Positions 1-57,642 of a DNA stretch of 64,000 nt are shown one piece after another. This DNA comes from Moniliella sp. 'wahieum' (lineage: Eukaryota). Below the pieces are notes generated by a model, which saw only the letters and a program-made list of their open reading frames with translations, was not told where the DNA came from and made no database searches. Location: NCBI GenBank assembly GCA_003971905.1, contig RSEE01000019.1, positions 434,001-498,000 on the forward strand, read 5' to 3'. How positions within the stretch are numbered: the stretch's first letter is position 1; each line of letters opens with the position of its first letter. Both the position numbers and the translations under genes were made by a program.

Positions 1-2120
1 CCGTTTAGGAAACAGGGAGCCGCCAGCAATAAGTCACAGAACACTAGGGTGGCGCGCTTGGATACGAATGAGCGGGGCAGGCGTCCAAGCGGTGAACCGT
101 ATCTCCCATGATGATACTCTCATCAGTTAATTCTTTCCAATGCATTGTAACCTCGCGTCGTCATAACCAGGGGGAAAGATGTTGGTTGAGTCGTGAGCGC
201 GGCCCTTGCACTTGAGGTTCTTGTCGCATTCTGCTTTTGATCCATCAATCGAAGCAGATCCTTCTCCCGGCGTTCCGAAGGCGTTGCGGCAACAGTGCCC
301 TCGTTAGTAGCGCAACCACCCTCCGATACGCAAACATCGCCTCCCGTAGTGCCACCGAGCCCCGTACCGTTCAACTGGGGCCGGTCAAGCTTCAAGCTCC
401 ACTGGTGCAGTACAGTTTTCGCAGCCCATGGAAAGTAGGCCCGCTAAGGCCGATATGGAGCAAGCAAAAACTACGCCTCTCAAACCAAGACCCCACCCTC
501 TACAGCTCATTAAGCTCATTGACGGCCAAGTCGATCACCGGGTTGACCCCGATGCCCCTGTGAGGTGACGCATAAAAGCGTAACGCGTAGAGAATGCAGG
601 CATCAGTATGTGTGGATGGTAGATGGTGAGTGACTAGTGACTAGTGAGCTCTGCGCAATGGCCGACACGTATTGCCCGATATCACTCCCCAGGACGTTGT
701 TGCCATAGAGCGGGGACAAGATGCAGCAGGAGGGAATAGGGGAAATCACCGACAATCGAGATGCTCGTCTGGGATCGCTGGTGTGTGCCCAGCGCCCATC
801 GCCGATGGGTTGGCACCCAAACCGCGCGGGCTTTTCTCCCACGGTCTCATTGCCATCATGCATCAGTCATCGAAATCATCGCGTCAGCGCGTCAGTGCTC
901 AGCGTCATCGATCACTGGTTTTTCCGTCCCACACAGCGTTCCCAACCCCCGCCGGCAGATCACCGACATGATGATCAAACGTCCTGCATCCTGTGCCATG
1001 TGCGGGCCAATGCGCGTGGGGACGTGTTGGGCGCGCCGGGGAGGATGGGACGGTGGAACGGTGGAAGGGCAGGATGGAACGTGGATGCAGGATGGGGCGG
1101 GTGCGGGCGGGTGGCAGGGGAGGCCCCAGCAGCCAGCGTATTTCCGCACATGGAGATGGTGTGGGGCATGCCAGTCGCACATGGCAGCACAAAAGGCGCC
1201 GCAGCGCTCGCGTGCGTTCTAAGGGCGGCGGGTGACCGGTGAAGGCCTGCGGGGGTAAGCGGTAACCGGTGAGGCTCACCCCTCTGCTTGGGGCCAAGGG
1301 GTGGAGGAGGGCAGGGGGTTCTGCTGTGGAGGATCTGCGCGGGGGGCTGATGCATGGGGTGTGCATGTGATTCATGGGATGTGTGATGCATGGATGCATG
1401 GATGCATGGATGCATGGATGCTGGGCTGGGCCGCGGGTGGGCCGCATTGGATATTGGCCAGGCCAGTGGTTGGTGTGGCTGGCCATTGGGCATGCAAGCC
1501 AGTGCGAGCGACGCGTGCGCCTGGCTCCCGGTTGGTGTTGGCAGCGTGCTTCGCTGGTCGCATCGGGCGGACGCAGGGCACGGGGGCTGTGTGCGGCTGC
1601 GGCTGGCGCCAGCGGGACAAGCCGGGCCAGGGCGCGGGGGGGACAGCATCGGCCGCAGTGGCGCTGTGCCTGCGGCTGGGGCGCATGGGATGCGTCAGCG
1701 CTCCAGAGCTTCCGCTGCAGCCGCAGATGCATCTGGGCAGCGGGCGCTGCGGGGCGGCGAATTACTAGTCACTAGTCACTCGTCACTCACACTCCAGCAT
1801 TCGGTTGAATAGTTGAATTGAGACGTTGAGCAAGCACGCCCAGCACACGTGCCACGAGCCAAGCGGGCCTTATCTGCCCCGCTGTTTTTATTGGTGCGGT
1901 CGAGCCCCTAACCCTCCCCTCCTCCCTTCTCCCCTCCACCCTCCACCCCACCCCCCTCCCCCCACCCAGCTATGGCCATCATACGCACCGCCACAGCCTA
2001 AACGGCGCCTCCTCTCCTCCACCCAGCAGCTGCCCCACGCCGTCCATCTCGCTTCCCGCGTCCCTTCCGTCGCCTCCCACCCAGCCCTGCCACTCCCCCC
2101 ACCCCCCCCCTACAGCAACC

Positions 2121-3434
2121 ATGTCCGCCACCTCCACCCCCAATCCCCCCCCCCCAATCTCCACCGAGATACCGAGCCCGAGCCCGAGCCTCTTTCAGCC
2201 TGGCTCCCGCGCCCCCCCATCCGGCCCATCCGACCTGCCTTGCGCTCCTGCCTCAGGCGTATGCCCAGCCCGACAGACGCAGTCCTGCCGCGCTCGCTTC
2301 CTCGCCTCGTCACCCCTTCCTCCTCATCCACCTCCCTGTCCTCGTCCGCGAGTATCCGAACGGTGCGCTTTTCGGAGGAAGAGGTGCCTGTGTTTGTGAC
2401 GCATAGCGCCAGCGACTATGACCGTCGGCCGTCTGTGGTGGCCTACCATGGCATGGCAAGTCTTTGGGTGCTGGTCCCCATCTCTGTGAGGGTCAGGAGG
2501 AGGGTCAAGAGGCTCCTCCGCCCGGCACGGGAGCTGGACAGGCGTGGACTAAGGCCCGGATCGCCTCGGCCAACGCAGCCGAGATGGAGCAAGCGACCTC
2601 CATCTGATGTCGAGGACAGCGTCGAGGCGCTATGGGTCCCTTGGCGCAGCGCGTCTCATGGGTTTTCCTCGGAGGAGGATTCTGCCGCTGCTGAAGAGGT
2701 CTGTACACCCGAGCAATTGCCAGCGCCGCGCATGCTCGCTTCGGCGCTCCGGCTCTGGTTGTTTCGACAAGTGAGAGTCCTGCGTCTCCCGTCTCGAACA
2801 CGTTTGGGGTCGGACACTGAGTCCTCGACTCGGATGCAGACGCCGAGCCCCAGACCATCTTTTTGTTCTCGCTACGGGGAGATGAGAACGAGTTGACGGT
2901 GGCGCGGCCCAAGAAGCACAAGCTTAAGTCTACTCGCTCTGTTTCTCCCGAACCGGCATCGTCGACGAAACTGGCGCCGGTGCCAACGCTCGATGAAGAT
3001 TGTATCCCCTCCTCTGCGCCCATCTCATCAGTGGTGGTACGGGAACGGACGCAGCCCAAGTGCCCCGCCTCACCCCGAAGCCGGTCGGGAGGGATGTCCT
3101 TCTCGCCTCGCACCCACTGGGCTGGTGGATCAAACTGGCTCCGCCGCTCGTCCCCATCGTCAACCGTAATTCCCGCTCGGCATCACCTACGATGCCATTG
3201 ACCGTGGTGCCGACGCTGCCACCGCCTCGGACCCCTGAGCAAGCCCGAACGCGCGCTGATGGGTATGGGGCCGCACCACCATGCCAAGCTGAACCGCAAG
3301 GCGCATGCCCAGCGGGTTGCCTCATGGCCCGGTTCGGGTTGTTGGAGCAACCGCCACCGCCGTTGCCTGGCGGCCCCGCGGCTCAGGCCACGCCTGCACG
3401 CGGCCCTACCGCCCCTGTTTCCTACATGCAATAA
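2121..3434 (+). CDS. Proline/serine-rich protein with RVxF-type PP1-docking motif (Bni4/Phactr C-terminal-like); frameshifted
   Basis: ORF 1826-2896 contains TVRFSEEEVPVFVTHSASDYDRRP, resembling the VRF...(TY/TH)S..DYDRR motif of Bni4/Phactr PP1 regulators. The ATG at 2121 and stop at 3434 were inferred by joining overlapping ORFs. Confidence 0.55.
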
Positions 3435-5558
3435 CCCCTGTTTTGTCTTCTTCTTTTTCATCCTCCTCCTCAGTATGGTTATACTCGCCTCGGTTTCTTT
3501 TCTGGTCCCTCTCCCACACGTTCGACTGCTTTATGGCGATGGTCTACGCGCGTCAGCGTGAACGTCTGACCACTTGGAGTGGTCACAGTATGGACTGTTT
3601 TTGTCATGGGCTTGCTTGGGGCTACTGGTATGCAGCGGTAGTGGTACATAGCCATTTTTGTGATATCTTCTTCGAACGTCGAGGATGAGGTAGAGAGAAG
3701 AGAAGGCATTGCGCGGCGCACACGAAAAGGGGTGGCTTGGATTCCTTGCCATGGAGGCTCACTGGCCCAGCAGGACAGCAAAATCATGGACAGTCTCGCT
3801 GACACTGCCGTGCTACGTCGTATTGTGGGTTAGTACGTTAGTACGCGTGGGCCTCTCCGGCCCGCTCGGGCATGCCAATAGGGGTAGGCGAGGACTCAGT
3901 GCTGCGCTAGAAGGCGGCCGACTTGGGACTGCTCAACGTTATGGCGGCAGTCTACGAGTAAATTGATGACCCAGCGTTTTGCTGTTGGCGGCCTGCTTGC
4001 CTCTGTTTCCTGAACCAATCTTGGCCTTGAAGCTTGAAGCGTGAAGCGTGTGAAAGAAAGGTCTTTTGACCATGCCTATCTCCCCACACTATATCCGTCG
4101 GTTCTTCTTTTCTGGCTACTTACTACAGACCACAAGCGACCACCAACAGGGAGACTGGTGTGCCCGCGCGTTCACGGCAGAATCAGATATCATGTTTTTA
4201 CATGCACATGCTGTACCTCTACGTGAGTGTGTGAAGGCGTGAAGAGCGTGAGCCGACGGGGGCTGCGGCGCTGAGGACGTCGAGTGCAAAGTACAAGACC
4301 CCTGCTTACCCGGTGCAGGAGCTACGCCACAGCGGTCAGCGGGTAGGCAGACACCATATGGATTGGCCAGGACCACGTGTGTTCCAACCTGTGCAAGCTG
4401 CCCCAGTGCTCGCAGCTGGTTCAACGTTGAGTTCAAGTTCAACGCAGCTTGAAGCTTGAAGCTTGAATGTTCAACTTGACGCTTGACGCTTGACGCTACG
4501 TGGACGCGTGGACGCGTGATGGAGCCACGGTGCAACAGCAGGCAACAGCATGTGGATGCCCCCCCAGCACCCGTTTCGCCACGCCGCCCATGCGCCGCCC
4601 CCGAGGTCCCGACGCGAGCGGCACATGCCTTCTGCGGGCATCACGCGTCCCTGCACCCCTCCGCCCGTTCTCTGTGCGGGCCCGAACCAGCGTCGCGAGT
4701 ACTCCGGCTGCGTACGCGGTCATTAATTATTGTTGAATGTAAGACCGGAGGAACCCAAGGGATTGGGTGAAGAACCTCTGGAAATGTAGAGCAATGCAAT
4801 CGCGATGGTGGTGGTTGAGGTTTAAGCCTTGTGCCACACTAGAGACAGGGGTTCAGACAAGCCTGAGTATACACGTGGAGGCTTCGGAGGACAAATCAGG
4901 GGTGAAGGGTGATGAGGCGCCTTGGCCTAAGTACGGGACCACGGGTCCCAACATTGAATTTAACCTGTGCTTTCTCCTCGCCGGGCAAAAGGGCGAGGAT
5001 GGATGAGTACGTGTGGCGAGGCGTCGTGCGAACAAGGGGGCTCGCAGCTGGAATGGGGGTGGCAGGCTACGTGCATGGCCTAGGGCGTTGAGTACGTTGA
5101 GTACGTTGGACGGCGGCAGCTATAATCGATGCATGCGATCGATGGTAATTCTCCGTGTGGGGGAGACGGGCGGCAGGAGACGACTGGTCCGAGTGGCAGC
5201 GGCGAGCGAGGGACGGGCCAGGCGGCGAGGGAGGGAGGGGGGATGGAGGAGGCATGGCAGTCGATGGCAGTCGATGGCAGCCGATGGGCGCGGGCCGAGG
5301 TGGGGGTGCGGGGGGCCCAGAAGCGACGAGCGCATCGCCGCCTGAAAAGGGAAAATTTGATTGGCGACAGCACGTGGTCCTCCCGGCCTTGCCGCCGCTG
5401 CGCCCCACCGGGCCACACCCGACCACACCACATGCTCTGCTGCGCACCCCGTGCACCCCACCCGGTGCTGGCCGCGCTGGGCCTGCCCCCAGCATGGCCG
5501 CCGCCGCTGCCCTTGCGCTTGCCCACGGCCACAGCCCTCCTCCCCACCACCACCCGCC

Positions 5559-8517
5559 ATGTCCCCTCCCGGCAGCCTGGGCAGCAGCCCCACCGATCCT
5601 GCCCTCGCCCCTCGCGGCGTCGGCAGGCGCGGTCCTCGCTCTGCCCACGCCACCTCCTGCCCCTGTGTAATCAGGTCGAGGACGATGTCTCCTGTCGCCT
5701 CGCCTCGGTCTCACTCCCCTCGAGGGGGTCGGGGTCGGTTGGCTCGGGCGGGTCTTGCCGCTCCCCCTCAACTGCTGTCTTCCCCTGTTGGTTGGGGCCG
5801 ATGCCTGCTCCTCCCTCTCCTCCTCAATGTCGTCGCGTTATGTCCCACCGCACCTACGCTCCCTCGCCTCCGCTTCCGGTGTGTGGGGGTCGCACGTAAG
5901 CAGTGCATCCTCCAGCCGCTCTTCGAGCCGGAGCCAAAGCCATGGCCGATCTCAGTCCACGCCATTCTTGGTTCCCCCTGGCCCCGACTCGGTTGACTCT
6001 GCCTCGCCCCTGACCCTTCCCCTCGACTCCTCTCCCTCGCCACTCTCCTGCGCCCCTGACACCAGCACCGATCCGGCACCCGTGTCGCCTCTGACTGCAC
6101 CTGCTGCCGTGCTATCATCTGCCCCATTGCCAGCACCAGTCAAGCGCCCCTCCCACCCCGCCAGTCGCCATGTCCCCGATACCCTCAACGAGCCTGTGCT
6201 GGAATTGGGCTGTCGGATCGGTCCAGAGGAGACCCACCGTTCTCACCAGGTCTGTGTGGTAGCTCTCCGGCCCGACACGCCAGGCCCAGCGCCGACGGTC
6301 CAAGTGGTGCAAAGCTTGGGACAAGGCGATTACTCCAGCATATATATCGCGCGCCAAGTCGCTGGTGCACCTTTGCCTTTGCCACCCGATTCCGAGGGAG
6401 ATGGAGAGCTGGTCTTCTTGCTTACCTGCATGTCCAAGTATCACCTCTCCCCTGCCTTGCTGGCCGACGAACTGGCCGAATCGCAGCTCCACCTTTCTCT
6501 CCCCGTCCACCCCAATCTACCAACCCGGTACGCTGTCTTTGCCACGCCCGACCACCTTTTCTTTGTCAGTGAGCTCGTTCTGGGTCACGATTTGTTGGTG
6601 CTTCTCCACCAAGGCGAAGCTCACCTAACCGCCAAGGACCACATGGCTTCGCCGAACGGACACCACCCGAATCCTCTTGCATGGCTGGCTGAGGTCGATG
6701 GTCCTTTGCTCCTCTCCCGTCCACGGGTCCATTTGGTCACGGGCATTTTTGGCCAACTGTGCGATGCGGTCCAAACTCTGCACGGATGGGGCTTGGCTCA
6801 CCGTAACGTGACGTTACAAAACTGCGTGGTCATTGAGAGTCCGACGGTGCACCGAGCGGTCCAGCGCACCGATCTTGCTCCAGAACACGTGGATAAAGAC
6901 GTGCGGTTGAAGCTGATGGACCTGAGTCATCTGACGGACGAGGCGGCGGTGCATCGATGGCGCTTGCGCTCCCGATGCTTACCTTGCGCCGGAATGTTGC
7001 ACGCCCGAGGGCATTGGGTATGATCCCAAGAAGGCTGACATTTGGTCGCTTGGGATTGTTCTGCTGAATCTCCTCTTCCACCGCACCCCGTTTCGAAGGG
7101 CGGATCAAACTGCTTGTCCGTCATACACATGCTTTGTCTCGGACCCCGTCGGATTTCTTCAGACTGCGTTTGACCATCTTACCTTCACCACGGCGTCATT
7201 TTTGGCTCAGCATGTGTTCAACCTCGACCCAAGCCAGCGGGCTTCTCCCGCCCAGGTCGGTTTGTGGGCCAGCACGGCCTTCTGCCATCCTTGACTCATC
7301 CGGACTCCTCCACTCTCTCCCGTGGCGGCTGCGGGCATCACCCTGCCCCTGACGAGCGAGCCAATGTATCAATCCCGTTCCCGATCGCTCCCTCGCTCCA
7401 TGCGTTCCGGCCGGTCGTCTCGCCCTGCTTCCATTCACACTGCACGCTCGGTCCGGGATGGGTTGTTACCCCGGCGCGTGGCCGATCCCGCACCCCGGGG
7501 TATGTATCCGACGAAGAGGGGGAAGCGGAAGACGGGGGCGCGCACCCTGCTAGCCCCCATCCGTCGGGGCGCCGGCGCAAACGGGGAAATCGGAGGGCTA
7601 CATCGGCTCACAAAGGACAGGCCTCTGCAACGGGTCGCAGCTTGTCCGAACAAGCGTCGCTCAGTGCCCTCTCACTGGGGGGCGAGGGCGATTCGGACTT
7701 GGCCTGCCGCCTTCGCCTTCGTCCCTGCTCTCCTTGGCATCTCGTCGCGCTTCCGGCGCCAGTACCTCCTCTCTCCATGGTGCGCAACGGCTTCGGAACA
7801 GCACCACGTACCCCTGCCATGTCCCCGAGAAGGCTGCGCGGTTGCTGGGAACGCCACTTCCCCCCCGCTCCTCCCGTGCAAGCACGGGCGCCGGTAGCTT
7901 GGCCAGCCAGGGCAGTGTAGGAAGCGGGGACGATGTCCAATCGCTCCGTTCTACCTTCTCCTCGCTCCGCTCCGGCCATCCGCAAGTCGGCCGATTCGTC
8001 CCGGCGGCACTACGGCCGGCGAAAGCGGGTTATGGAACCGAAACTTGCAGCCCATTTCCGAACAGCGCGTTCGTCCTGCTCTCCCTCGTGCTCATACTCC
8101 TACTCCTACTCCTACTCTACTCCTTTCCCCGCTGCCTCACGCTCTCTTCCTGCTCTTCCCCGCTTCTCGCCCGCGCTCCTACAAGCGCGCTCCGCCTCCT
8201 CCGCATCCCAAATCGCATGCGCGCACCGAGCTGGATGCGAGTTACTTGGCCGAGATTTTTGGCGTGACGCCGCAGCGGCAGGCGGGGCGGACGAGCGGAC
8301 AACGGTCGCTGCCCAACATGCCCCTGTCGCGGGGCAAGCCCAAGAGCGGCCACGGGCCCAGCTTGCTTGCTGCGGCGCCCACGCTGGCCAAATCACCTTC
8401 CTCGCTCGCCTCGCGCCCCCCGCCGCCTCCTTGGCTCCACCGCGGCCAGCGCCAGCGCCCGAAACCAGCGCGCTCAGCCGCATGTTCCGTGTCGGCCGCA
8501 AGGAAGGACTGCTGTAA
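5559..8517 (+). CDS. Ran1/Pat1-like Ser/Thr kinase-fold protein, probable pseudokinase, with long S/P-rich tails; frameshifted
   Basis: Kinase subdomains appear in order: LGQGDYSSIY, LHLSLPVHPNL, IFGQLCDAVQTLH, HRNVTLQN, LKLMDLS. After a frameshift near 6950 the sequence reads YLAPECCTPEGIGYDPKKADIWSLGIVLLNLLFHRTPF. The start is at 5559 or 5827 (MSSRYVPPHLR). Confidence 0.75.
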
Positions 8518-8878
8518 CATTCAACTCCCCTTTTGACCTTCCCTTTCCCCCCTTTCCGCCTTCCATGGCGCCCCCCCCCCCCCCCCCCCCGCTACCCTCG
8601 TTCCTATCCATCGTTTGTCGGTCACAGTTTGTTTTCTATCGCACTTTTGGTATACCATCCTGCCTTTCTTGCTCACGTGCCGCACCCTAGGAAGCACCCA
8701 ACCTTCTTTTTGTCTCGCCTCGTAAGCCTCGTCTCTTGTCTCGTCAGAGAGATGAATGGATAGATAGACCTGGTCAACATGATACGGAGCAATGGCATCA
8801 TAAGAGCCTGCTAGCCTTCCTAGCATCTCGGCCCCAGCTCCGGTTGGGACGAACGGGGAGGGAAATCAGGGGAGGAGG

Positions 8879-11267: not shown

Positions 11268-11271
11268 GTTC

Positions 11272-13545: not shown

Positions 13546-13587
13546 ACCCCCTCCACCAGCGATCCCTACGTATGCCCGTCGGATAGC

Positions 13588-18850: not shown

Positions 18851-21800
18851 ACGCGTAAACAACCAACTTGAAGTGCATCCTGTATATCATCCATCGGTCT
18901 CCATGGCCCTGGCGCCTAGCGTCGTATGGTTGGGCGTGTGGTATGTGAAGACCCCCGGGAATCCCGGAGTGGGGTCCAGGAGGGGGTGCAAGGATCGGAT
19001 CGGTTCCGCAGTACACTTGCGCGTGCTCTCGGGTCCCTGGATAAAGACCTAAGATCTGAGCCTAAAACCTAAAGCCAAAGCGGGGTGGCCGCTACCCCCG
19101 GGCACATGGCGAACTCTGCGGTCAACGTGCTGTTTCCACGGAACCTCTTCCAGCTTAGGCTCAGATATCAGACCCAGGCTTCAGGAGCTTCAGGGCCTCA
19201 GGCTGAGGCCTGAGCCTCGGGCGTCAAGTTGACGCGGCGTTACAATGGGGCCGGGGGCTCAGGCTGCGGCCCTGAGGCCCTGAGGCCTAATCAGTACGAA
19301 GTGAGGGCCAGACTGAGCGCGGGTAGCGCGGGAAACTGGAAGCTTGACACGTGAAGATAGGAGATTGAATTTAATTATGCACGATGGAGCAGGGAGCTCT
19401 GAGACTCTCGCTATTGCCTGTTGTTGCTATTATTACCGCCGCAGGCTCAACGTTCCTTGATGTGTCCAGCTAGCTAGAAGCTTCAATTGGGCTCAGGCTG
19501 AGTGCGGAGCATGTGAGGCCTTGGCGCCCTCAGGTTCAAAGCATCCAGTACACAGTAACTAGAGTGGCTGCCGATAGCTGGTAAAGCAACCCAGATCAGA
19601 TCTCAGTCTGGGATCGGAGTCGATTGCATAAGGGGGGGGACACGAGAGGGAGCGTCATGCGGGCAAGCATGTGCCCCTGCTGGCCGCGAACGCAAAGCTT
19701 AAGGCCTAAGGCCTAAACCTAAAGCCTAAGGCCTACCCGACCACCAGCGGCGAACCAGGTACGATAGTGATAACTACGACGGATAATCGAGATAATCGAT
19801 AATCGAAGACCCACAACAACCACAATATTGTACCGGAAGCTAATACTTTTCTTCGATCCCAAAAAGCATAATCCAACCCGACACGATTGGGCAGAAAATA
19901 GGGGGAGGCGGGACCGAGACTACCGGTGGGCTGCTGGCTCTCGTCTGGCGCTCGTCTCGGCCGTGCGCAGGCGAACAAGAAACGGCGAAAAGAGCGGCGC
20001 ACGAGAAGGGTGCAGGATAGTGCGTGTGGGGGTTGGCACGTTGGCGGTTGGCGCCAACGAAGAGGAGACATGTGGTACGTACCGCCCTCGCTACGTACCG
20101 CCCATCGGAATTTCCGTTTTGGCGAACGATCCACACCCGAGGGGGACCTGGCCCACCCACCTACCCGACCCACCCGACCTACCGACGGTGCCGGCGACTA
20201 GTGGCCGACGAACAGGTGCGTGACGACGTTAGACGTTTAACCTTAATTTTAAAAACCGACAACGCTTGTATGTGAATGTCACATGTCATGTGAATATGAT
20301 ATGGAACAGTGGGCCCGCGGGGTCCCGCTTCCTGACACCTGATGCATGATGCAGGATGCATGACGGCGGTCGCGCGCGGCCCCTTGCCCACCAGTGCACC
20401 AGCCAGCATACAATCGATCACGTTCATCAAATTCAAAGACCATCGAGACCATTCAAGCAGCAAGGCCAGAGTGCGGCCTAGTGCCACATACATGATGGTC
20501 AGGGAAGCGCGAAGCGTGACGCCCGTGACGCGTGACCCGAGAATAGTCACTACTTTCATCCCACATGTCATGTGACATGTGGCAATACGTCGTCTGGGAT
20601 ACGGACGCGCTCTGGTGAGCTTCGCGGGTCCCAGCCACAGTGTCGGTGACATGGTGACACACTCAATTGTTCTGGGCAGCTGGCTCGGACCTGGTCGGGC
20701 CCCAGTAGGCCCCGGGCTGCCCCCGCTGCCCCGCGGATGCACTCAGTACTCAGACTGAGTACTGACTGATGTACTGATGGTTCAGACTCTCCCAGGCTCC
20801 AAAGTTGGATGGAGAAACAGGGAGAAAAAGAGAAGCGCGCGGGCAACGAGAATGAGTAATTGATTGATGAGATCGATGATCCTGCTTGTGGATGCTGAAA
20901 TGGTTCAGCGCTTCAGCGGTTCACCGGTCACCCACCGGTCACGGTTCAACGTTCACCGTTCATGCAGTTCAAACGTTCATGCATCCTGATTAGCGGGCTA
21001 CTACATACAATACTGTTGGGACGTGCCAACGTTTGGGTCTCTGGGATCTGGGGCGAAGGGTTTGGCGGGGAGAGGGAGATTATCAATTCCTGGTGACCTT
21101 CACCGGTGAAGCAGCTGGTAAAGCTGTTGAACGTTGAAACTTGAAGCTCGTGAGAGTCACATCGATGCGCTGAGTGCATCAAGTAGGAGTACCGATGAAC
21201 GAAGAAGCTTGCTTGTGAATATGAGATCGATGAGAGGACTTGAAGCGCTGAAGGTTGACTTCAACTTGAAGGTTGTAAACACAGGAGTTCGAAGCTTGGA
21301 ATTGAATGTTGAAGGGTACGCTTGAAACTTGAAGCTTGAACGCTGGAAGAGTAGGAACATAGAAGCGCTGCAGGCCACGCACGAGCCCATGAATCAGCGG
21401 TTAATAAGCCGTCAGAAAAAAGGGGTGTAGGACGTGTAGGGCCTAGGCGTTGACATGCTGACACGTTGGCCGTTGCCCTTGAAGCCGAAGTCGTCGCAGC
21501 AGCCCCCAGCCCAGTGTGCACGAACAGGACCATGATACACATGATGCATGATGCATGATGCATGATGCATGACCTCCAGCCAATTGCGCACCACAGAGCT
21601 GGCTGATACCTACGATCTAAGATCTAGTCGTCGGCCTGATCGATGATCTATGGTCAAAGGTCTCAGATCGTCTGATTGATGCATGATGTATGATCCACGG
21701 TGCATGGTGCGACCGGTGACCGGTGACTGATTTGTACGTCGATTAGTGATCAATGAATGATTAACGATGCATGATGCATCGTGTGAGATGTGGGATGAAT

Positions 21801-23317
21801 GATCGATGATAGGACTACCGCCTATTAAGGACAAGTCGGTGGTCTATTGCAACCCCAAGCAATACCCGTCCGTACCTTCGTGAATGCCCAGCGCGCGCAG
21901 CGCTGTCCATGTCCCCCGTCCAACGTCCATGTCAACGCAAGTCAGTACCGTACACGTACCGGCGCAAAGGGGTCAGGAGGACGGGTGACACGGTGACGGA
22001 CGCACGCGTGTTGCTGGTTGTGCAACGCTGGGCACTGGGCTTGATCGACAGAATGCATGATGCATGGACTCGGAGGATGGAGTGGTCACTAGGTCACTAA
22101 AGTTACATGTCAAAGACAGCACCACTGACAGCCGTCTCTCTTTCGGGGCGCCTAGGTTTCACATGTTCTCCGAGCACGAGCCTGCACCAGCCTGGCAGGA
22201 AGAACCCCGGTGAGCATCCCTGTTCCCATTTGAAACGTGGTGCATATCGAAACGTGCAATTGCGACCGATGAGTCCGATGCCAGTAACTAGTAAATGGGT
22301 ATAAACGTTTTTTGAACGCGTGTACCGTACCATCGGCCATCTCATAAGCGCTATGCGCTGCGCGCTAATAATTAATAACTAGCTGTTCTTGTGTGTGAAA
22401 TGCTATACCAGGCTGTACCCCGTCAGTGCCTCGCTGGCCTCACCGATCGGCACGTTGCTTCGCCAGACGCGGATGGATGGCTATCCCATACAAGGCAAGC
22501 GCTATAGGACGCAAAGGCGCCGCACAAGAGACACACCCTACTGCAGCTCCGATATGGCGCGGGGGAAGGGTGCGCTGCGTGGTGGCCTGCGCGTCGCTGA
22601 TGCAAACTGGGGTGGCCCATGGATTACGAAGGCAGAATATGAAAAGAGGAGCAGGCCAGCCTAGCAGCTGCGCTGCGCCTGAATCCTGACGTCAGTACCA
22701 GTGAGGCCCGAGGGCAGGAGGGGCAGAAGAGGAAGCTCAGATCTCAGATCGCAGAAGAGGGGTTGGAGGGGGTGCGGCTGGCCAGGCACGGCAACCAGCG
22801 GGGGCGGCGTGGGTGGCAGGTGTTGTGGTGGGTTGTATTCGATGCTCTGCGCGGCCAGGCGAAAGGCAAGGGCAGGCGAGGGCAGCACAGTCAGACTGGC
22901 GTAGTGGACCCTGGCTGCGGTGAGCGCAGCTGGAAATCAAGCCACCTCCGCTGTGGAACCAACGCTGGGTACGTACATCAGCACAATATCCCATCGGTGG
23001 GCAGGGGCCGCAGAGCAGCAGAGTGCTGCGCTGTGCTGCGCTGCCCCACGCTGCGGCTCGAGGCCCAAGGCGGAGGCCTAAGGCCGAACAACCAGCAGCG
23101 CAGGGCTGCTATAGCAGTTGCTACAGCATAGCAGCTCGATAATCGCAACCCTGCGCTGCTGACGCGCTGGCGCTGTCCCTGCATGCTGCCGCTACGCAGC
23201 ACTCAGGCCGCCGTCCCCCCCTCCCCCCACGCGCCGCCTCGTCCTCCTCCCCCCCCAGCCTGCCCGCCGCCATCGCCCCCCCACCTCGCCTCCCCCCCCC
23301 ACCCACACGCCACCCCC

Positions 23318-25228: not shown

Positions 25229-26910
25229 TCTCGCTCCCAACTCGGGTTGTTGGGCTCTCATCTCAGTGTCGATGAAAGACGTGCCGAATAGGCTTCCATC
25301 ACCACCACACTGTCTTCTCGTGGCGAGGGCGCAATCTGCGTTCCTTCTCGTATTGCTCTGGTACATGAGCTTCCAACCCCTTTTTTGAACCTCGATCTGG
25401 GGTGGTCATCAGCCCCCTACTCGCCGTGGCCTGTGGAGATCCCATTTGAGCCGATACGGTAACCCCATAACCCCCTACCATACCCTTCCAACTCGGCTGT
25501 TCAGTGCCGAGTCACACAACTTGGTGGGTTTTTTCTCCCTTTGGCCGTGATGCATGAGATGGCTTCCTGTACGTGTGCAAACCTTGTCTGAGAGAGGCTC
25601 TGGCCGTACTTGGCTCACGCTTTGTGCGCTGGGCAACAAAGCGGCGGAAAGCCCCAAGACGGTCTATTTTTTTGTCCAGCGCTCACTGGCTCTCGTTCTC
25701 TCTCTTTGGCCTATCCCTACCTCTTCCTCTTCCCTCTTCCGTCCCCATTTCCTTCCTCACTGCTGCCTTCTTTTTTTGCTTCTACTTCTCTACCCCGGGT
25801 TGGCCTGTGCTGGCCACATCCAATCTGCCTACATATGTTTTGCTCGTGCTCCTCTCGCCCCGCCCACTGTATGGACCTGTATCTACCCTCTACCCCCCTC
25901 CCTTTTCCGTGCCTGCTTTGCCTCTCGCCTTTGCCCCCCTCTAAGCCCTCTCCCCCCGCCCCGCTTTCTGTGCCCCCTAGCGCTTAGCTCCCGCGACCCC
26001 CCCACGACCAGATGGCAGTCGTTTTTTGTCGCGCACGAACGCTCGCTCGCCCTCGCTATCGTACCAAGTACCCCTGCTTGGTTCATAACCGTAGACCCCA
26101 TTCCCCTATAGTTGACCTTAGTCGCTCGGTCGGTCTCCTGTCTCGTATCATTCAAAATGTGTATAGCATGTAAGGTTTGGTTGGTAGTTGAGGTCTTGCG
26201 CGGTCCAGTGTCTTGTGGGTACCCTCAGATCCTCTCTCCTGCTATCCTCACTCGCAGTAACAGACCGATACACCACATCAGAGAGCGATGATCATGTCGA
26301 TGATCGATGAGAAGCGTGACGTCACGAGACCTAGGAGGCGAAAGATTGCGTCTGAGTGTCTCAACGCTCACCAACGTCCAACGTCTCCCTAGCCGAGCGC
26401 ACCCTTTCACATGGAACTGTGCTCCCTCTCGGGGTTTTACAAGCGGGGCAAAGGGGACAAAGGGGGGGAGGGGGGGCAGTAGCGTGTGTGGTTTTGAACC
26501 TATGGTGAACCACACCATTGTGCACCGCATAATGCATGTAACATGCATACTCCTGATCCTCAGGCCTCATGCACCTCATGAGGTTAATGATGCCGATGTG
26601 GATTCAGTTTGGCTCCAGGGGACAAGTCGATTGTTCTCCATCTCAGGCACCACATAATGCTGTGGTTCGGCGTGGCCAACGTCAACGTGATCAAACCCCT
26701 GAGCCTCATGCTTCCGGGCGTCAGGGCAGTGTTTCTTGTGTACTGTGAGTACAGGAAGACTAATACAATGCACGCGACCAGCTGGTGCTTGGCACATTCC
26801 ATGTACCATGAGAGATCCATGAGGTCATGGGATGAGGAGAATGTCTTCGGCTGTTGGGTTGGCTGTTGCATGGTTGTAGCTTATCTGACCGGGACGTGTG
26901 GGACGTAGGT

Positions 26911-27470
26911 ACGTTGAACGTTGAACGTTGAACCCGTTGGGCGTTGAACAGATTGACAGGCATCGAACATGCGACAAGAGATGTGTGCTGTAACATGTGG
27001 CAGCGTTGTTGACATTTTGACAGGACGCCTGTTGGAACGTTGAACGTTGATGCATGCATGATGCACGGTAGCCGGTAGCCGGTAGCTGGTAGCCGTAGAT
27101 GTCGATTATGGCACGCGGCAAGTGACTAGTGACTAGCGTGTGACATGTGATATACATGTGACACATACTTGTCAATGGACAAGGCTTGAAGCTTGAAGCT
27201 TGAAGCTTGAAGTGACATGTGACATGTGACAACTGTGGCAGCTCGCCCTAGCTAATAATGTGTGCATCGTGCCTGGCGTGTGCAAGTGACTAGTGACTAG
27301 TGACATGTGACATGTGACATGCATGGCATGCGACTGTGACTTAATGATTGATGATCGATGATCGATGATCGACGACATCGATGATCAATGATTAATGACA
27401 CGTGCTGCTCTGTTGAACACGTTCAACTTTTTGGCATATACGTTGGGCGCATTACGCGTTACGCGTTACC
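26911..27470. repeat. Dense cluster of 7-bp tandem arrays (TGA/TAA/TAG + 4-bp palindrome)
   Basis: (ACGT-TGA)3 26911-26931; TAG-CCGG-TAG-CCGG-TAG 27069-27085; (TGA-AGCT)3 from 27187; TGA-CATG arrays 27213-27229; TGA-CTAG/CATG 27287-27321; (TGA-TCGA)3 from 27352; TTA-CGCG 27452-27468. Confidence 0.9.
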
Positions 27471-31834: not shown

Positions 31835-32958
31835 ACTTGATCGGCCCCATTCGCATCTAATCTATACGTGCTGTGTTTTTACTCGTGTTGGCCCAACTAT
31901 TACCCGGCCGACTAGGCTATCATGCAAGCAGTCCAGCGACCTCCTCAACTTTCCGATAATAGGGGTCAAAGGAGTGATCACGGCATGGGAGTAAGAATTG
32001 AAGGGGAGGCGAGGGCGAAGAGATATGCTTGCTGTACTCCCCCTTTTGACGAGTAAGGATACGTATGTAGATGTAGAGCATGGTGGGGACGGGGACTGTA
32101 TGGTTCGCATCTAGGGTACACCTCAGGAGGAAGAGTTGGTGGTAGATGCCTTAGTAGTAAATATGACGGAGAGGGAAGTTTTGCTTTATTCTTATTGTGG
32201 CTTTCCCTCGACAGTGGAGGTACACGCCACCACTCTTTAAGGCACGCACGGAGACTCATCGACAAAGGGGTTGTGGTAATATCCCACCGAATTCATATGC
32301 ACTATCCGGCTGCGGTCCATGAATAGCGCAACAGCCACGGAATGGGCGAGCGCATCCTCCCACACTTTGTTGACGGCAGCTGGGATGTAGGCTGGGGATA
32401 GAGGTTTCCACCATCCCCCTTCGCGGCCCACAATCTCAATTCTTCTACCGATACGGATGGCAATCCAGCCACCGAATCGTACAACCACTGGCACAGGGGA
32501 TCAGCTGCACTTTTTTCGGGAAGACATTTGCATGTTACACCTCTTCGAATTTATCTGTCCCCTGCCAAGCTCTTGTGACTCTACCGTTTACCCTGGCTGG
32601 AGAGGGTTGGAGTCTGGCAATGCAATCTGGCTCATACACTGGCGGGGCAGATATGGGGAACTTGCACTTTGTAACGTCGAAGCTTGACATGCTTGAAGCT
32701 TGACAGCTTGACAAAAGGGTTAGGTTTGCTTTGAGCAGCAAGCGCAACCGGTAATCAAGTGTACAGGGCTTTTTGGTGCTATGGCCACCACAACCACAAT
32801 AACATCAGTGTGCATGAGCACCACATTACAGATGTCGACGCCTACGTGATAGCAGGGGTCACGTCAAAGATCGAGATCGGTACGAGTTCAGTACTGAGCA
32901 AGCAAGAGCTCATCTCAGGACTAGCGGCTTAGTTTAACTACCGCCAATACGAATGCAA

Positions 32959-34284: not shown

Positions 34285-34666
34285 GGCTGGCTGCCCCGAG
34301 AAGAGTAGGTGGAGGGGAGTTGAGAAGGACCCTCGAGCCGATGATGGAAGGCCGCGCGGTCTGGGCTGCTGAGTGCTGATCGCCTGCAAGTCGCAGCTGT
34401 TTGTTGCTGGGGGCTGGGGGGCTGTCTGGAGCGGGCGGCGCAGCGGCTCCACGTCATGCGATGTTGTATCCTGCAACATTGCCTCGGGGGCAGCAGTGAT
34501 GCATGACGCGTGGTGCATGATAGACGATGTGTCCATGCATGTCTGGCTCGTGCGCGCAGCCGCTTACCTCATACGAGCTGGGTCCCAGCGCCATGGCCGC
34601 CGGGTGCTCAGCCCCACCCACCGCCGCACCGCCTCGCCCGACCAGCCTCCCTCTTGCCCCACCACC

Positions 34667-50895: not shown

Positions 50896-53471
50896 GGCGA
50901 GGGGATGGTGGAGGCGGCTGAGGACGGCCAGTCGCACAGGGCGCGGGAGGGCAGATGAGATTGGCAATCAAGTGACTAGTGACTTGTGCGTGAATTGGGC
51001 AGCAGCAGCTGGCCGTTGCGGTAAACTTGAACGTTGAACGTTGCGTTTTGAACGCGGGAGGAGTGAAATGCGAAACGATGATGTGATGCATGCACCTGCG
51101 CTTGAAAGTTGAAGCTGAGCCGGCGCGGCGAGCTCTGAGTCTGAGATCTGAGCGTAATTAATAATTGTCTTCCCACGGCCTACGGCCGGAGGCGGCCCGG
51201 AGTGCGGCGTACTGCCTGTCCCGTGTGGGGCGGCGTGGCTTGCTCCGCAAACAGTAGTGCAGCGCACTGGCGCCGTGCGGTGCGCGATATGGCTCGGTTG
51301 CCCGCTGCGCTGCCGACTACACAATCGGCGCGACTGAGTGGCCGGTGACTAAGACGAGTGGGCAGGATGCCTGATGTGACACTGATGCATGATGCCTGCC
51401 GCCAGAGACACAGGGCATGTGCCATGTCACACGTGACCTATGACTGGACTGGTTGTGCATTGTGATGCATGTGGACGCCGCGAAGACGATAGCGCCCCCT
51501 TTCGGCTCCTTAGTAAATCCTCTCACTCCAAGCCCCATCCTGCCTCTGCTTCTCCATTCTCCATCTTCCCTAGATGGCTTGCTGCCCTGCGCTTCGACCA
51601 TGGCAGCAAAAAGGAGATCCACATCGGACAAAAGCAGGCGCCAACCTCCTGTCGGGAGGGCAGAGCAAAGCCACAGTGGCTGTGGCTCTGCTGCCAAAAG
51701 GCCAAGTGTGGAGCATAAACGTGAAAGAGACAGGCGGGAGGAGGCCAGTAGCCAGCAAGAGGCAGAAAAGCGTTCTCTTATTACGTTAAACGTTTAACTT
51801 CGACGAGGCTTTACCGTAGTGGTCTGTCGGTGCCTCAAACAGGCCTGAGGCCCGAGAGAGACTGCCTCTGTCCTCAAGCTCACGCTGGCCTCGCTCAGGG
51901 GACCCGGGACAAAGAATGGAGGGAAGCAGCAGACCCACTGCTCCACCTAGTCAAAGGTACACTGACAGCGAGAGCGCGTGTCGTTTCCTTACCGGCCTTA
52001 CCGCCTTACCGGTTACCGGTTACCGGTTACCCTAAAGCTGACGGATCCGTATATGGGAGACATTGTAGACGCTGACAACGTCGGCAGAAAGCACATGCTG
52101 CTCGTAACAGGGCACGCGTCTCAGTTTCTGGGGAACACCGTGTCTCTGTATCGAGTACCCCCTAACCACGCCGGAACGGCACTTGTTCCTGGCGATGCAG
52201 CCGCCGCTTCATAAGTAGCTGCTATATAAGTACTACTAGGTACACTCTTTGGCTGGCAGACTATGTATAGTAGCAAGGGCTACATTAGTAGTGAGGTAGG
52301 GTCAAATTCCCCTTTACTGCCACCGCGGGCCTATACGGCACCCTACTATTATGGCACCCACGGCGCCCTATGGCCGAGTTGGGTGGATTCTTCGTCGTTT
52401 TATAGGAAGTAGTAGGTGCCGGGACGTTTCTTGAGGGCCGAGTAACTAGTGAGGCTTGAGAGGCTTGAGGCTCAGACCCTCAGGGTTCTACAAAGATCAC
52501 AAGCAGTCAATTCGAGGTGTAGGAAAGCATTTGCATAATTGGGGCACTGTCTATTAGTATAGCAACAGAACGCATAAGCTGTCCTTCCCTCTTCTTCCGC
52601 TCCGCATCATGCTCTCTGCTCTTGCTTTCACCCCACGAACGATTTCTGCCATTCCTTGGCCTATAATCCCGACTCTGATCTCCCTCTTGCCTTAATAGCC
52701 CCGACTGCGTGACAAAATTGAAGAGCTCATCGGTTTGAACAAACCGGAGGGCAGCTGAAGGAGATTTGGATACAATCATTACGAGAGATTTTTGGAGGGT
52801 ATATGTTGGTGATGTTGGCCACACAGTCTTGCGGAAGGAAATCCTACCACAACGCGGATGTGCTTTTCGCCCCAAACGGCATTTCCCCTCCATACATTAT
52901 TGTCGAGGAAGAGGATTAGCTTCATGGATTGACGTAGTATTAGTACTAATACACTCCCTCCGGTGCGCGGAAAAAAACATCCCAGAGCGAGACGCTGCCG
53001 GAAAGAAGAATTGGGAATAGGACGAGATCGGACAAACTATGGCAATAGCTATCAAAACATATTATTGATGGGTAATGGTCTAACATGATGTGCATGATTT
53101 GGTACTATTGTGCCATGGAACAGGTCACTCTCCGATGAGACGAAGAGTAGTGTACAGAAGAGGTGGCCAGTCGATTGGGCACAGAGAGTGGGAACGAAGT
53201 GACAATGAAGCGAAGGGCTGAGGGTGTGGAGACACACGACACCAACTGCAGTAGTAGAGAGGACGGCAGGGAAGGCCGGCGCGAGCAAATATGATATGAA
53301 CAGTGGCCTATACTAGTACGTCCTAAGCCATGGCCTACCTTCGTTATAGATACACTTCTACTACACCTGTTATACTAATGACACCCTTCTTTCTATTGGC
53401 CACCAGCACGCTATATATATCCTGTGTCTGTCAATCGTGGAAGTGATCGAGCTCATCTCTGCTTGATTTCT

Positions 53472-54679
53472 TTATTGTCTTTCACCCATCATGGACACCA
53501 TTGTGTCAATATTAGCTATACTTCTACTAATATATGCGGTCTCGGTTGGTGTATGCATCTTTAGTTCTCTACAACCGTCCCTTGTCTGGACCATCTCGTC
53601 CGATAGCCGACGAACCAGATCGCTAGCAGGCAGTATGTCCTTCATGCGCACCACCCCTGTGCCAGCCCAGGTGACGACTCTGTCCAACCGTGAAGGACTG
53701 TAGGCAGTGCGGTAGGTTTCCTTGCCCGCATCGAACTCAGCAACGTTTGACTATACAAGCCGCGTCCGTCGACACCAGAGGGCCAGCCCAACGTGCCCCT
53801 CGCATGGTCAAACGCAGTAGACCGCACAGTAGGTTCATCCGGATTGCCCTGCATCCCTGGTGTGTCGGATCCGGCATGCAGCAGTTGTTTCTTGGCCGTC
53901 ACTGTAGAGTGCCTCGGGGTCAAGAGGAAGCGGGTGCCAAAGACAGCTGCTCGGCGCCAGCCGCAATGAGATGGCCTGCCTCTTGCCCGTTGGCTAGTCC
54001 TCCGGCAACAAAAGCACGGCCGCATGTTGTGCGTCGCAAACGCAGTCTGAACTGATCCAGCAACGCTCGTACGGGTGGAGCGGCAGCCATACCATGTCCT
54101 CCCTCCTCCTCGTGGCCCGTTAGAGAAAGCAGTGGGATTGTACGCAGCGCTTCTTGGGCTTCCTTTAAGGTTCCGACCCCAATCACGATCTGCACTGCTT
54201 CGCTCGTTCCACGAAACTGGTCATCCCAATACTGGAGATAGGCGATCCATGCCCCCAACTCCTTGGCCTGTCCAAATGAGAACCACACTGCCGCGACCCG
54301 CTCCGAGGCAAGTAATGAACCAGTTCATGAGCCGGGCTTGTGTTGGGCGCGTCTGAGCGGTGAGGAAGCTGACCATTGGCCAGTTGGGTCAACCTCCAAC
54401 CAGCACACCGACTCCAATAGGTTTCCGTTCGTTTGGAGGCGTCAAGGAGGGCAAACCAATCGGTGGAAGCAATAAGCAGCTCAGACCGTAACTGGTCGGG
54501 GCCAGTCCCGGCAACCGCAAAGCCTACCGCCAGCGCGCGTGACCGCGCCGCCAGTGCGCCGCCCGATGCTGTGGCAAGAGGGCCACGATAATGGGCACCT
54601 GCAGTGGACCCAACGACCCTGGACACGTGCGGCCAAAGAAGTGCTTGGTTAGGGACATGAAGCCGCGCTGGATGCTCAT
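53472..54679 (-). CDS. Nitronate monooxygenase / 2-nitropropane dioxygenase family FMN enzyme; frameshifted
   Basis: PLATASGGALAA, WFSFG, GVGTLKEA, EGGHG, AGGLANG..GA, VFGTRFLLT, TVRSTAFDHARGTLGWPSGVDGRGL, VVTWAGTGV. Confidence 0.85.
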
Positions 54680-55106
54680 TAGCTAGTGGGGAGGCTCCGC
54701 TTAAGTATATGTTGCGCTCGGACGAGCGGAGCTAGTAAGAGCGCAGTAACCCATGGCGGCGATCGTGGAGGACGAGGGCGGGCACAAGATACATGATGCC
54801 CCAAATTGATCTCGATGCCCATGGCGGCCCTCCAGCTGCCTCAGCCGGCAGATCTGACAAATAGAGACCGAAAAAGTTTGGCTAGGCTATATGCATCACC
54901 ACTGGAGCAGTGTTGGGTATATAAAGGCACTATCCGCCTTTGCATCCTATAGAGACGTCTCGCACACACATACAGCCACTAGTTACCAGTTACCGTTCAC
55001 TGCTGGTCCCTGCGGCACGGTAATAACACCCCCAGAGGTGGGCGCCTTGGAGCTACTCTGGCCACTGACGGCATTCCATTGGATTATGAATAAGTGCAGG
55101 TTCTCC

Positions 55107-56958: not shown

Positions 56959-57642
56959 GGCAGCAGTAGAAGCGACTTGCGTCACAAACGCATTGGCCAA
57001 AGCAAAAACCCCGCTTTGGCAACGGCCTGTGAAAGTCTGCCTCGTTTGCACATGAGCAATTCCACATTTCAAAGTGCAGTCCATATATGCTCTTGCCGAA
57101 ACGCAGGGGACCTCACCGGAACTTAACCCGTCACGCGTCACGCGTCACGCGTCAAGAGCTTCAAGCTTCATCGATGAATGACGTTAATGACGCGGAGCGG
57201 ACGCGTCGGGCATTAGGCGGAGTACGTTGTACGCACAGCCAAGCGACTGCACCTGAGTACTGGGTGCCTGAGCGCTGAGCCTGCGCCCAAGTAACTGAGC
57301 TGAGGCTCAGCGCTGAGGCGCTGAGGCCCAGCCTGAGCGGCAACCAATGGTCTCTAGTGGCTAGTGGCACTGCGCGCTAGCGCTTGAAGCTTGAAGCTTG
57401 AAGCACTGCCGATGGGGTGGATCGAGTATTTAGTGGCACTGGTGGTACTGGTGGTACGCCAGCTGTGCGAGAGGGGCTTGGATTCGAAGAAAAAAGGGAA
57501 TATTGAACTTGTACTGGACCGCTGACGTGTAACGTGTGACGTCCGTTGCCCATTGCCTAGGTGGCTTTTCGATCGACATGCACGGGCCACATTGGACGGG
57601 CCGCTGCCGATGGGACATCGATTGTCGGTTATCGATCGGGGG

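Follow-up and report, generated by a model that had tools for sequence, protein, structure and literature searches.

Short repeats built around a palindrome are known from several systems. CNG repeats are the period-3 case, their unit being a 2-bp palindrome plus one base, and the footprint of a cut-and-paste transposon consists of a target duplication, a few palindromic bases and the target duplication again. In this work, we analyze a stretch of 64,000 nucleotides from Moniliella sp. 'wahieum' (GenBank assembly GCA_003971905.1, contig RSEE01000019.1, positions 434,001 to 498,000), hereafter referred to as the window, whose intergenic DNA harbors many short arrays of a 7-bp unit, repeated head to tail and composed of a T-N-A triplet, most often TGA, and a 4-bp palindrome (the core). 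All positions and counts given for the window refer to this single 64-kb sequence.

The comparison with the known systems reveals both likenesses and differences. Like the CNG-type hairpin repeats (CTG/CAG, CGG/CCG), the arrays combine a palindrome with one spacer base, are predicted to fold back with one mismatch per unit, and have two strands that differ in stability; unlike them, they have a period of 7 instead of 3, many cores and a fixed T..A pair, and they are short (2 to 4.7 copies) and very numerous. The footprints of cut-and-paste transposons (Tc1/mariner, and PIF/Harbinger with its 3-bp TWA) also show a direct triplet, a short palindrome and the direct triplet again, whereas the window contains no element, up to 4.7 units per array, variable boundaries, 13 cores, and TGA/TCA in preference to TAA/TTA. 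The bacterial heptamer repeats (STRR, REP-like) are likewise intergenic, have a period of 7 and a unit that differs between loci; the inverted layout of heptamer runs seen in bacterial heptamer palindromes is, in contrast, rare in the window, where direct runs of a symmetric unit prevail, and in a fungus. Ordinary microsatellites share with the arrays perfect head-to-tail copies, arbitrary end phases, a non-coding location and mutational intermediates, but the units of the window obey a strict sequence rule. Lastly, clusters of transcription-factor sites (bZIP TGAC/TTAC, MCB ACGCGT) differ in that the arrays have no constant site of at least 5 bases, TGA alone being constant. On the whole, the arrays appear to work most like CNG-type hairpin repeats and are formally like transposon footprints, and each of these systems has a defining feature that they lack. 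Within the portions of the literature open to full-text search, which was queried also with 14-nt strings of the arrays, no description of such arrays was retrieved; for bacteria, heptamer repeats are reported to be in excess (PMC4692102).

The heptamer rule

A perfect period-7 tandem of at least 14 nt (at least two copies) was counted as an array, and dinucleotide shuffles were used as the null. The window contains 49 such arrays versus a shuffle mean of 3.79 (sd 1.85, maximum 9; 100 shuffles); the observed numbers and shuffle means are 98 and 55 for period 5, 60 and 14.5 for period 6, and 16 and 0.88 for period 8. Twenty-nine of the 49 period-7 arrays are made of units that, in one of their rotations, consist of T-N-A plus a palindromic tetramer; four have a palindromic tetramer joined to another triplet and 16 have none. 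As a null, units that obey the rule make up 2.7% of all heptamers and, within the window, 4.2% of the non-coding and 1.6% of the coding 7-mers, so that the rule is enriched about 15- to 25-fold among the arrays, and about 1000-fold over shuffles. Thus, the evidence for a tandem 7-bp unit formed by T-N-A and one of many 4-bp palindromes is very strong.

The symmetry of the unit can be described in two equivalent ways. T-N-A followed by the core XYY'X' corresponds to a 6-bp palindrome, A-XYY'X'-T, plus one spacer base, which is usually G; the same unit is also an odd 7-bp palindrome, Y'X'T-N-AXY, repeated head to tail, so that a dyad center occurs every 3.5 bp and the two strands of a rule-following array read alike, the spacer excepted. 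The T..A pair is obligatory: none of the 49 arrays is formed by a 6-bp palindrome plus spacer with any other outer pair, a class that represents 7.7% of all heptamers. Moreover, adherence to the rule increases with length, from 12 of 29 arrays at 14-16 nt to 17 of 20 at 17 nt or more and 9 of 11 at 21 nt or more, and the two exceptions in this last class (TGA-CGCT x3.3 and TAG-CCGG x3) are each one substitution off the rule.

Among the 29 rule-following arrays the triplet is TGA in 20, TCA in five, and TAA and TTA in two each, while ten cores are represented: AGCT (6), CTAG (5), TGCA (4), ACGT (3), TCGA (3), CATG, CCGG and CGCG (2 each), GGCC and GATC (1 each). At the level of decamers (triplet-N4-triplet, whole window) 13 of the 16 palindromic tetramers are seen, with only AATT, ATAT and TATA missing. 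The proportion of decamers with a palindromic N4, for which about 1 in 15 is expected by chance, is 51/84 for TGA, 16/33 for TCA (67 of 117 for the two together), 6/10 for TAA and 7/11 for TTA; triplets other than T-N-A give 3/14 (TAG), 0/16 (CTA), 5/42 (TGG) and 3/39 (CCA). The period is also evident from the triplet alone, since in non-coding DNA 76 pairs of TGAs lie at distance 7, whereas other spacings give roughly 10-20 pairs each; minor peaks follow at 14 (33 pairs) and 21 (23 pairs). The base following TGA in 25 arrays is C in nine, A in nine, T in six and G in one, and the spacer is G/C in 25 of the 29 (p = 2e-4; this p-value and those given below, a hand estimate excepted, treat as independent arrays that are in fact clustered, and are therefore too small).

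These findings confirm the observation made in the original prediction, which had proposed from the sequence alone a period-7 grammar with a palindromic core, and support its interpretation in part. All the 17 arrays that it named, including the TGG-CTAG array (57354-57368), are present, with coordinates within 0-3 bases, and so are the 8-bp TGGA variants (1385-1421 and 4499-4518) that it mentioned. An excess over chance is found both for the arrays (49 versus 3.79, 29 of the 49 with T-N-A plus a palindromic tetramer) and for decamers with a palindromic core relative to shuffled intergenic DNA (64 versus 0.63). Its estimate of at least 10 of the 16 cores corresponds to the 10 of the perfect arrays and the 13 of the decamers, and we concur that a single rule with many cores cannot be explained by one slipped microsatellite. 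The constant triplet has to be redefined: it had been described as T-R-R (TGA, TAA or TAG) and is instead T-N-A, with TCA and TTA as symmetric forms, and with TAG and TGG found in one array each. As T-N-A makes the whole heptamer dyad-symmetric and TAG and TGG do not fit this symmetry, the stop-codon identity of the triplet is probably incidental. The doubt that the prediction itself had raised on this point was well founded, TAG being rare and the TGA strand not being consistently sense to the neighboring genes. A stop-codon reading as the main rule was rejected, in view of the near absence of TAG and of the inconsistent orientation.

Genomic position and behavior of the arrays

The position of the arrays relative to genes was evaluated on two coding maps. 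The first one, a rough codon-score mask made for this analysis, assigns 40.6% of the window to coding DNA; it was used in place of a mask of open reading frames (ORFs) of at least 150 aa, which covered 76% of the window and was dropped as too lenient in GC-rich DNA. The second one, also rough, is based on high-scoring exon-like segments and delimits nine intergenic intervals with a total length of 21,062 nt. All 29 rule-following arrays fall inside the nine intervals and none in the other ~43 kb, a count weakened by the fact that the intervals were set after the arrays had already been seen; according to the codon-score mask, 28 of the 29 are non-coding. On these rough maps the arrays are thus intergenic and not coding, as originally predicted. 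When the intergenic intervals were compared with 300 shuffles, 40 period-7 arrays were found versus 1.21, 29 rule-following arrays versus 0.03 (maximum 1), 95 decamers of the type TGA/TCA-N4-TGA/TCA versus 11.1, and 64 versus 0.63 for those with a palindromic core. Of the 21,062 intergenic nt, 1916 belong to perfect period-7 stretches 12 nt or more in length. Similarly, when self-similarity at lag 7 is measured by runs of 8 or more matches, intergenic DNA has 7.76 and genic DNA 0.35 such runs per 1000 positions; lag 7 is the top signal of intergenic DNA, where period 7 exceeds all the other periods above 3, whereas genic DNA shows period 3.

The arrays are strongly clustered. The region 26.9-27.5 kb embeds nine perfect rule-following arrays (ten including TAG-CCGG), and many more are located at 20.3-22.1 kb. 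In 22 of the 29 arrays, TGA is read on the + strand (two-sided p = 0.008, the arrays being clustered). At 1764-1800 and 50971-51383 the TGA strand runs antisense to the neighboring ORF, and at other sites it is sense. The arrangement is direct, with 64 palindromic decamers having the same triplet on both sides versus one TGA-palindrome-TCA and five TCA-palindrome-TGA. A fold-back or template-switching mechanism, which had been suggested in the original prediction, would favor perfect inverted forms, and these are rare (6 versus 64 direct ones). The only 32-nt inverted pair (616-647 and 1769-1800, 84%) consists of two degenerate TGA-N4 arrays with no element between them; its interpretation as terminal inverted repeats was rejected, as the arms are such arrays and the DNA that they enclose has no domain match.

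Within each array the copies are arranged head to tail, number from 2 to 4.7 and are mostly 100% identical, many TRF rows showing 100% matches, which suggests that the arrays are young. All seven phases occur at both ends (p = 0.056 for the first base and p = 0.24 for the last base, chi-square), with a weak excess of arrays starting on the half-core Y'X' (phase 5; 10 of 29) and ending on TGA (phase 2; 8 of 29). Non-palindromic variants one step away from the rule are themselves repeated and adjoin their palindromic relatives (4026-4050, 4446-4518), and arrays with different cores share a TGA at their junction (27184-27231, 27285-27321). Outside the perfect stretches, TGA is followed by a palindrome in 12.2% and 8.9% of the cases on the two strands versus a background of 6.7%, and single-copy A-N4-T palindromes reach 2.04 times the expected number, the values for the other outer pairs being 0.97-1.22. 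We read both excesses as relics of decayed arrays.

Other periods were also analyzed. Among the 8-bp arrays, six correspond to TGA or TAA plus a palindrome with one extra base, and two to T-GG-A plus a palindrome. Intergenic arrays of period 5 consist of a palindrome plus one base in 21 of 40 cases versus a null of 28.6% (p = 0.001), with varied centers and no T-N-A rule; two-copy examples lie at 1456-1466, 11324-11334 and 22354-22363, a second and weaker bias toward odd dyad-symmetric duplications. No palindromic unit was found among the 18 intergenic arrays of period 6, and no dyad bias in those of periods 8 to 11. Two 9-bp arrays hold a GTAC palindrome, namely GTGGTACTG x2.8 at 57433-57457 and CGTTGAGTA x2.6 at 5086-5108, the latter also with TGA, and may represent longer relatives of the heptamer rule.

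As a control outside the window, a metagenome collection was scanned for five TGAs at an exact 7-bp spacing with free cores, and at least 125 loci (330 kb) were obtained. Among the matches listed, 432 of 458 had no palindromic core at all, palindromic decamers were 34 of 1261, and only 5 of 400 period-7 arrays fitted the rule, 13 of 400 being some other palindrome plus one base, which is near the null. Thus, TGA-heptamer repeats do not in general obey the palindrome rule, which is lacking in this unrelated DNA. Two of the metagenome loci deserve mention. The last 363 nt of a 6.6-kb contig (locus L089, Ga0163179_10008697, 6300-6662; G+C 0.64) are made up almost entirely of closely packed tandem duplications of 7-8 bp, TCA-GGCC x4 among them, in a style like that of the intergenic DNA of the window, and may come from a related organism. 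Another one (Ga0137411_1309024, locus L062, 1500-1700) has two facing runs of GTGACNN heptamers about 130 nt apart, with the cores CTGG, CCGG, CTAG and CTGA, in which the steps from CCGG to CTGG and to CTAG are visible.

Possible origins of the arrays

Each strand of a rule-following array is predicted to fold on itself. The single-strand DNA folds show stems of 5 bp capped by a triloop (T-G-A or T-C-A), 1x1 G.G or C.C mismatches and further 6-bp stems, with predicted energies from -4.6 to -10.2 kcal/mol for the arrays and of only -0.7 kcal/mol for the non-palindromic TGA-CGCT x3.3. The G strand is predicted to be steadier than the C strand (-9.2 versus -7.8, -10.2 versus -7.7 and -8.0 versus -6.3 kcal/mol). 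The z-scores of the folds were low and were not used, shuffled palindromic repeats remaining self-complementary.

On this basis, the explanation that we tentatively place first, giving it a chance somewhat short of even, is that the arrays represent a lineage-specific, young and fast-turnover family of intergenic microsatellites, whose palindromic state is favored by the pairing of slipped units. As regards birth, growth and the preference for palindromes, we infer the following steps. Arrays would be born and lengthened via tandem duplication or replication slippage, and point mutation would give rise to non-palindromic units that are also able to expand. Palindromic units would win over them, as slipped-out units might pair with each other and escape loop repair; the palindromic state would then act as an attractor, with cores drifting from one palindrome to another through one-step intermediates. 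Yeast work from the Petes laboratory (1989-1999) reportedly described such an escape from loop repair for palindromic heteroduplex loops and CNG repeats. The preference for a G spacer, the trend with length, the arbitrary boundaries, the series of cores changing in place and the bias at period 5 all fit this idea, and arbitrary end phases in particular are predicted by slippage and not by a fixed cut.

Several points, however, weigh against the pairing of slipped units as a sufficient explanation. Two-copy arrays (14-16 nt) already follow the rule in 41% of the cases, which implies that the bias acts also at birth or that arrays shrink back to two copies; the arrays, moreover, are clustered and hence are not independent events. 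The units that are favored are not those forming the steadiest hairpins, and only the preference for a G spacer is in agreement with stability. Indeed, model arrays with other outer pairs fold better (GGC -16.2 and CGG -13.4 kcal/mol, versus -9.5 for TGA and -8.1 for TCA), and a model array of pure 6-bp palindromes reaches -12.4 kcal/mol, yet this class is absent from the period-6 arrays. The cores were often changed by paired substitutions and the outer pair never was, so that T..A must be held by something besides symmetry; as hairpin energy does not give the T..A rule, a sequence-specific factor is needed, be it an enzyme, a binding protein or common descent. In addition, the extra base of six 8-bp arrays breaks the 6-bp palindrome, which suggests that TGA is partly a separate module. 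A reading based purely on hairpin stability was accordingly judged insufficient, given that outer pairs of G/C fold better in the model and that no such array was found versus 29 with T..A.

The need for a sequence-specific factor leads to the idea that the units are written by a sequence-directed enzyme and that slippage merely lengthens the resulting scars, which we consider unlikely, albeit the best placed of the alternatives. The enzyme might act in two forms: either a cut-and-paste element that duplicates a T-N-A target of 3 bp is repeatedly inserted and excised, leaving target, palindrome and target, or a symmetric dimeric nuclease cuts with a 7-nt stagger centered on T-N-A, the ends being then filled in. 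Target duplications of 3 bp (TWA/TNA) occur in PIF/Harbinger and IS5-type elements, and palindromic P-nucleotides form at hairpin-opened ends. A constant direct triplet around a variable 4-bp palindrome matches the grammar of the arrays, and an enzyme would give a reason for the fixed T-N-A, unlike hairpin energy. The commonest boundaries (a start on Y'X' in 10 of 29 and an end on TGA in 8 of 29) together make half-core, TGA, core and TGA, as might be expected of a scar, but the boundaries do not keep to one phase (p = 0.056 and 0.24). The abutting of arrays with different cores at a common TGA (27184-27231 and 27285-27321) points in the same direction as the enzyme; a footprint, however, amounts to two units and not to 4.7, and 13 cores would require many families of elements if the palindrome derives from the element ends. 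No trace of such elements was found: the 64-kb window has no dispersed repeat of at least 30 nt besides the arrays, and terminal inverted repeats that would be convincing are lacking as well. A Pfam scan of 61 ORFs in or beside the intergenic regions (11 ORFs, plus 50 of the 149 with a length of 70 aa or more) detected neither transposase nor reverse-transcriptase domains. Furthermore, the complementarity of T and A would be left without a reason. A wider version, according to which a sequence-directed process (a symmetric dimeric nuclease, a domesticated transposase or a repair pathway) would write T-N-A-centered dyad heptamers and would have built about one tenth of the intergenic DNA, the arrays having perhaps been adopted as orientation-independent promoter or chromatin elements, seems to us slightly less probable still.

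The location of the arrays raises the question of whether they might be selected functional elements, such as binding arrays for a protein that recognizes one TGA per 7 bp, nucleosome-excluding or orientation-independent promoter elements, or three-frame stop cassettes. The arrays are strictly intergenic and often lie no more than a few hundred bases from ORF 5' ends: the one at 1764-1800 precedes an ORF at 1817, that at 34497 lies between ORFs of opposite direction, that at 50971 is next to an ORF ending at 50967, and that at 57131 is near 56974. The constancy of T-N-A while the cores vary would be expected under selection, and the TGA strand is + in 22 of 29 arrays (p = 0.008, with clustering). 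No fixed site exists beyond TGA, though, as there are 13 cores and the next base is C in nine, A in nine, T in six and G in one; the identity of the copies and the stepwise changes of core indicate recent mutation rather than conservation. As for stops, three units place one in all three frames of one strand, but the TGA strand is antisense at 1764-1800 and 50971-51383 and TAG forms one array only. Considering the 13 cores and the 100% identity of the copies, the binding of a protein at T-R-R half-sites, another suggestion of the original prediction, appears unlikely. Overall, we regard selection as improbable, somewhat more so than an enzyme.

A further possibility, to which we assign a low probability, is a self-reinforcing spread, in which broken ends or slipped strands would prime on other arrays (templated repair, ectopic conversion) and T-N-A would be the signature of the founder. 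Dyad-symmetric units would be at an advantage, either strand being able to pair with either strand of any copy. The recurrence of a few cores at many loci (AGCT 6, CTAG 5, TGCA 4, ACGT 3 and TCGA 3 of 29) is consistent with this idea, but a hand estimate gives no significant departure of the core counts from an even distribution among 12 cores (p about 0.1). The strong clustering (nine or ten arrays in 26.9-27.5 kb) and the excess of single A-N4-T palindromes outside the arrays (2.04 times expected versus 0.97-1.22 for the other pairs) also speak for a spread, while the loci have no common flanking sequence and double mutations, if able to alter the cores, would be expected to alter the outer pair as well. 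That the arrays are an artefact of assembly or base calling is extremely improbable, since dozens of different coherent arrays stand in unique sequence, only in non-coding DNA and with mutational intermediates, the independent metagenome fragment L089 shows a like patchwork, and dyad-symmetric heptamers are not the product of any sequencing error known to us.

Whatever the origin, repeat instability is usually studied on a few disease repeats, and the window appears to offer a natural genome with many parallel cases, in which one period, a fixed triplet and 13 interchangeable cores with their intermediates are gathered in a single natural set. If the escape of hairpins from repair was correct, the arrays would constitute a natural series for testing how far repeat birth and growth depend on secondary structure, spacer base and flanking pair. 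The obligatory T..A, despite steadier options, points to a sequence-specific player in DNA repair, transposition or chromatin. From a practical viewpoint, the arrays should be highly variable markers and should bias promoter motif searches in this lineage.

Arrays along the window, host and further features

The arrays are given here in order of position, with the strand of the unit in brackets. The first part of the window harbors (TGA-AGCT) x2 at 385..398 (-), (TGA-CTAG) x2.7 at 629..647 (+), the 8-bp variant (TGGA-TGCA) x4.6, that is ATGCAT plus GG, at 1385..1421 (+), and (TGA-CTAG) x2.4, which continues as its one-step variant (TGA-CGAG) x2, at 1764..1788 (-). At 4026..4050 (+), (TGA-AGCT) x2 is followed by the one-step variant (TGA-AGCG) x2.3, and at 4446..4518 (+) a series of cores is formed by (TGA-AGCT) x3 (4446-4467), (TGA-CGCT) x3.3 and (TGGA-CGCG) x2.5 (4499-4518).

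Between 19 and 23 kb, (TAA-GGCC) x2.4 at 19700..19716 (+), with degenerate TAA units up to 19735, and (TAA-TCGA) x2.3 at 19791..19806 (+) are followed by (TGA-TGCA) x2 at 20340..20353 (+), by a TGA-GTAC decamer at ~20756 and, as read directly, by a heterogeneous run of TCA units with the cores GCGC, GCGG, CCGG, ACGT, CCGT and TGCA at 20900..20990 (-). The longest perfect array, (TGA-TGCA) x4.7, is located at 21540..21572 (+); (TGA-CCGG) x2.4 lies at 21711..21727 (+), (TGA-TGCA) x2 both at 21766..21779 (+) and at 22053..22066 (+), and (TGA-GATC) x2.1 at 22736..22750 (-).

(TGA-TCGA) x2 at 26297..26310 (+) precedes the densest cluster. This begins with (TGA-ACGT) x3.3 at 26911..26933 (+) and (TGA-ACGT) x2.3 at 27035..27050 (+), and continues with the sole TAG array, (TAG-CCGG) x3, which is not dyad-symmetric, at 27066..27086 (+) and with (TGA-CTAG) x2.3 at 27121..27136 (+). 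Then, (TGA-AGCT) x4.1 abuts (TGA-CATG) x2.9 at 27184..27231 (+) and (TGA-CTAG) x2.9 abuts (TGA-CATG) x3.1 at 27285..27321 (+); at 27350..27400 (+), (TGA-TCGA) x3.3 (27350-27372) passes into TGA-TCAA and TGA-TTAA, a stepwise core series, and (TAA-CGCG) x2.6 closes the cluster at 27452..27469 (-).

Downstream, TGA-AGCT and TGAC-AGCT units (7 + 8 bp) give a period of 15-16 at 32679..32713 (+), and TGA-TGCA-TGA-CGCG-TGG-TGCA-TGA is found at 34497..34521 (+), between a PDI-like ORF (Pfam Thioredoxin) and a capping-protein-beta ORF oriented in opposite directions. The last part of the window holds (TGA-CTAG) x2 at 50971..50984 (+), (TGA-ACGT) x2.4 at 51027..51043 (+), TGA-GATC at 51142, (TAA-CCGG) x3.7 at 52006..52031 (-), (TGA-CGCG) x3.7 (57129-57154) with (TGA-AGCT) x2 at 57129..57170 (-), the sole TGG array, (TGG-CTAG) x2.1, at 57354..57368 (+), and (TGA-AGCT) x3.3 at 57382..57404 (+). 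The region 52100-55100 differs from the other long intergenic stretches: over ~3 kb it has a lower G+C content (0.51), no ORF of at least 200 aa and almost no heptamer arrays, and the ORFs of at least 70 aa scanned there had no Pfam match.

The window is nuclear DNA of a fungus belonging to Ustilaginomycotina; the original prediction of a basidiomycete near the smuts was right at the subphylum level. Its stop-to-stop ORFs encode eukaryotic domains (Pfam) of a P4-type phospholipid ATPase, Sec7, F-actin capping protein beta, ABC1 kinase, Na/H exchanger, thioredoxin/PDI and cytochrome P450. The best named relatives of the ATPase exon are all Ustilaginomycotina, with 40-47% identity (Tilletiaria 47%, Pseudozyma flocculosa 45%, Thecaphora 44%, Violaceomyces and Tilletiopsis 43%, Malassezia 40-41%), and two closer protein relatives show 80% and 65% identity; the host lineage is poorly sampled among smut-related fungi. 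The G+C content per 2 kb varies from 51 to 66%, with the minimum in long ORF-free stretches.

A tRNA gene is present at 11188-11267 (+). ARAGORN labels it tRNA-SeC(tca), but this UGA-reading assignment is a mis-call: the anticodon loop reads CTGTCAC, GTC being the anticodon, with ~10 additional bases behind it, a T-run lies downstream, and the alignment gives a tRNA-Asp(GUC) with a short intron. The whole-window Rfam search at the gathering threshold gave no match and thus missed this gene, which scores 46.6 bits against the Rfam tRNA model when the region is searched alone.

Other repeats of the window are of a different kind. A 27-bp tandem repeat (58841-59551; 26 copies, 78% identity) lies within a long ORF without Pfam match and would correspond to 9 residues if translated; its strand is uncertain, the ORF (58708-60156) being on the + strand and the codon score preferring the - strand. 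A C20 homopolymer separates two convergent genes at 8571-8590, a (CCTCTC)17 array occupies 36930-37027, and a CCA/CCG-rich repeat of period 9-12 is found at 13408-13558, on the 5' side of the P4-ATPase gene region.

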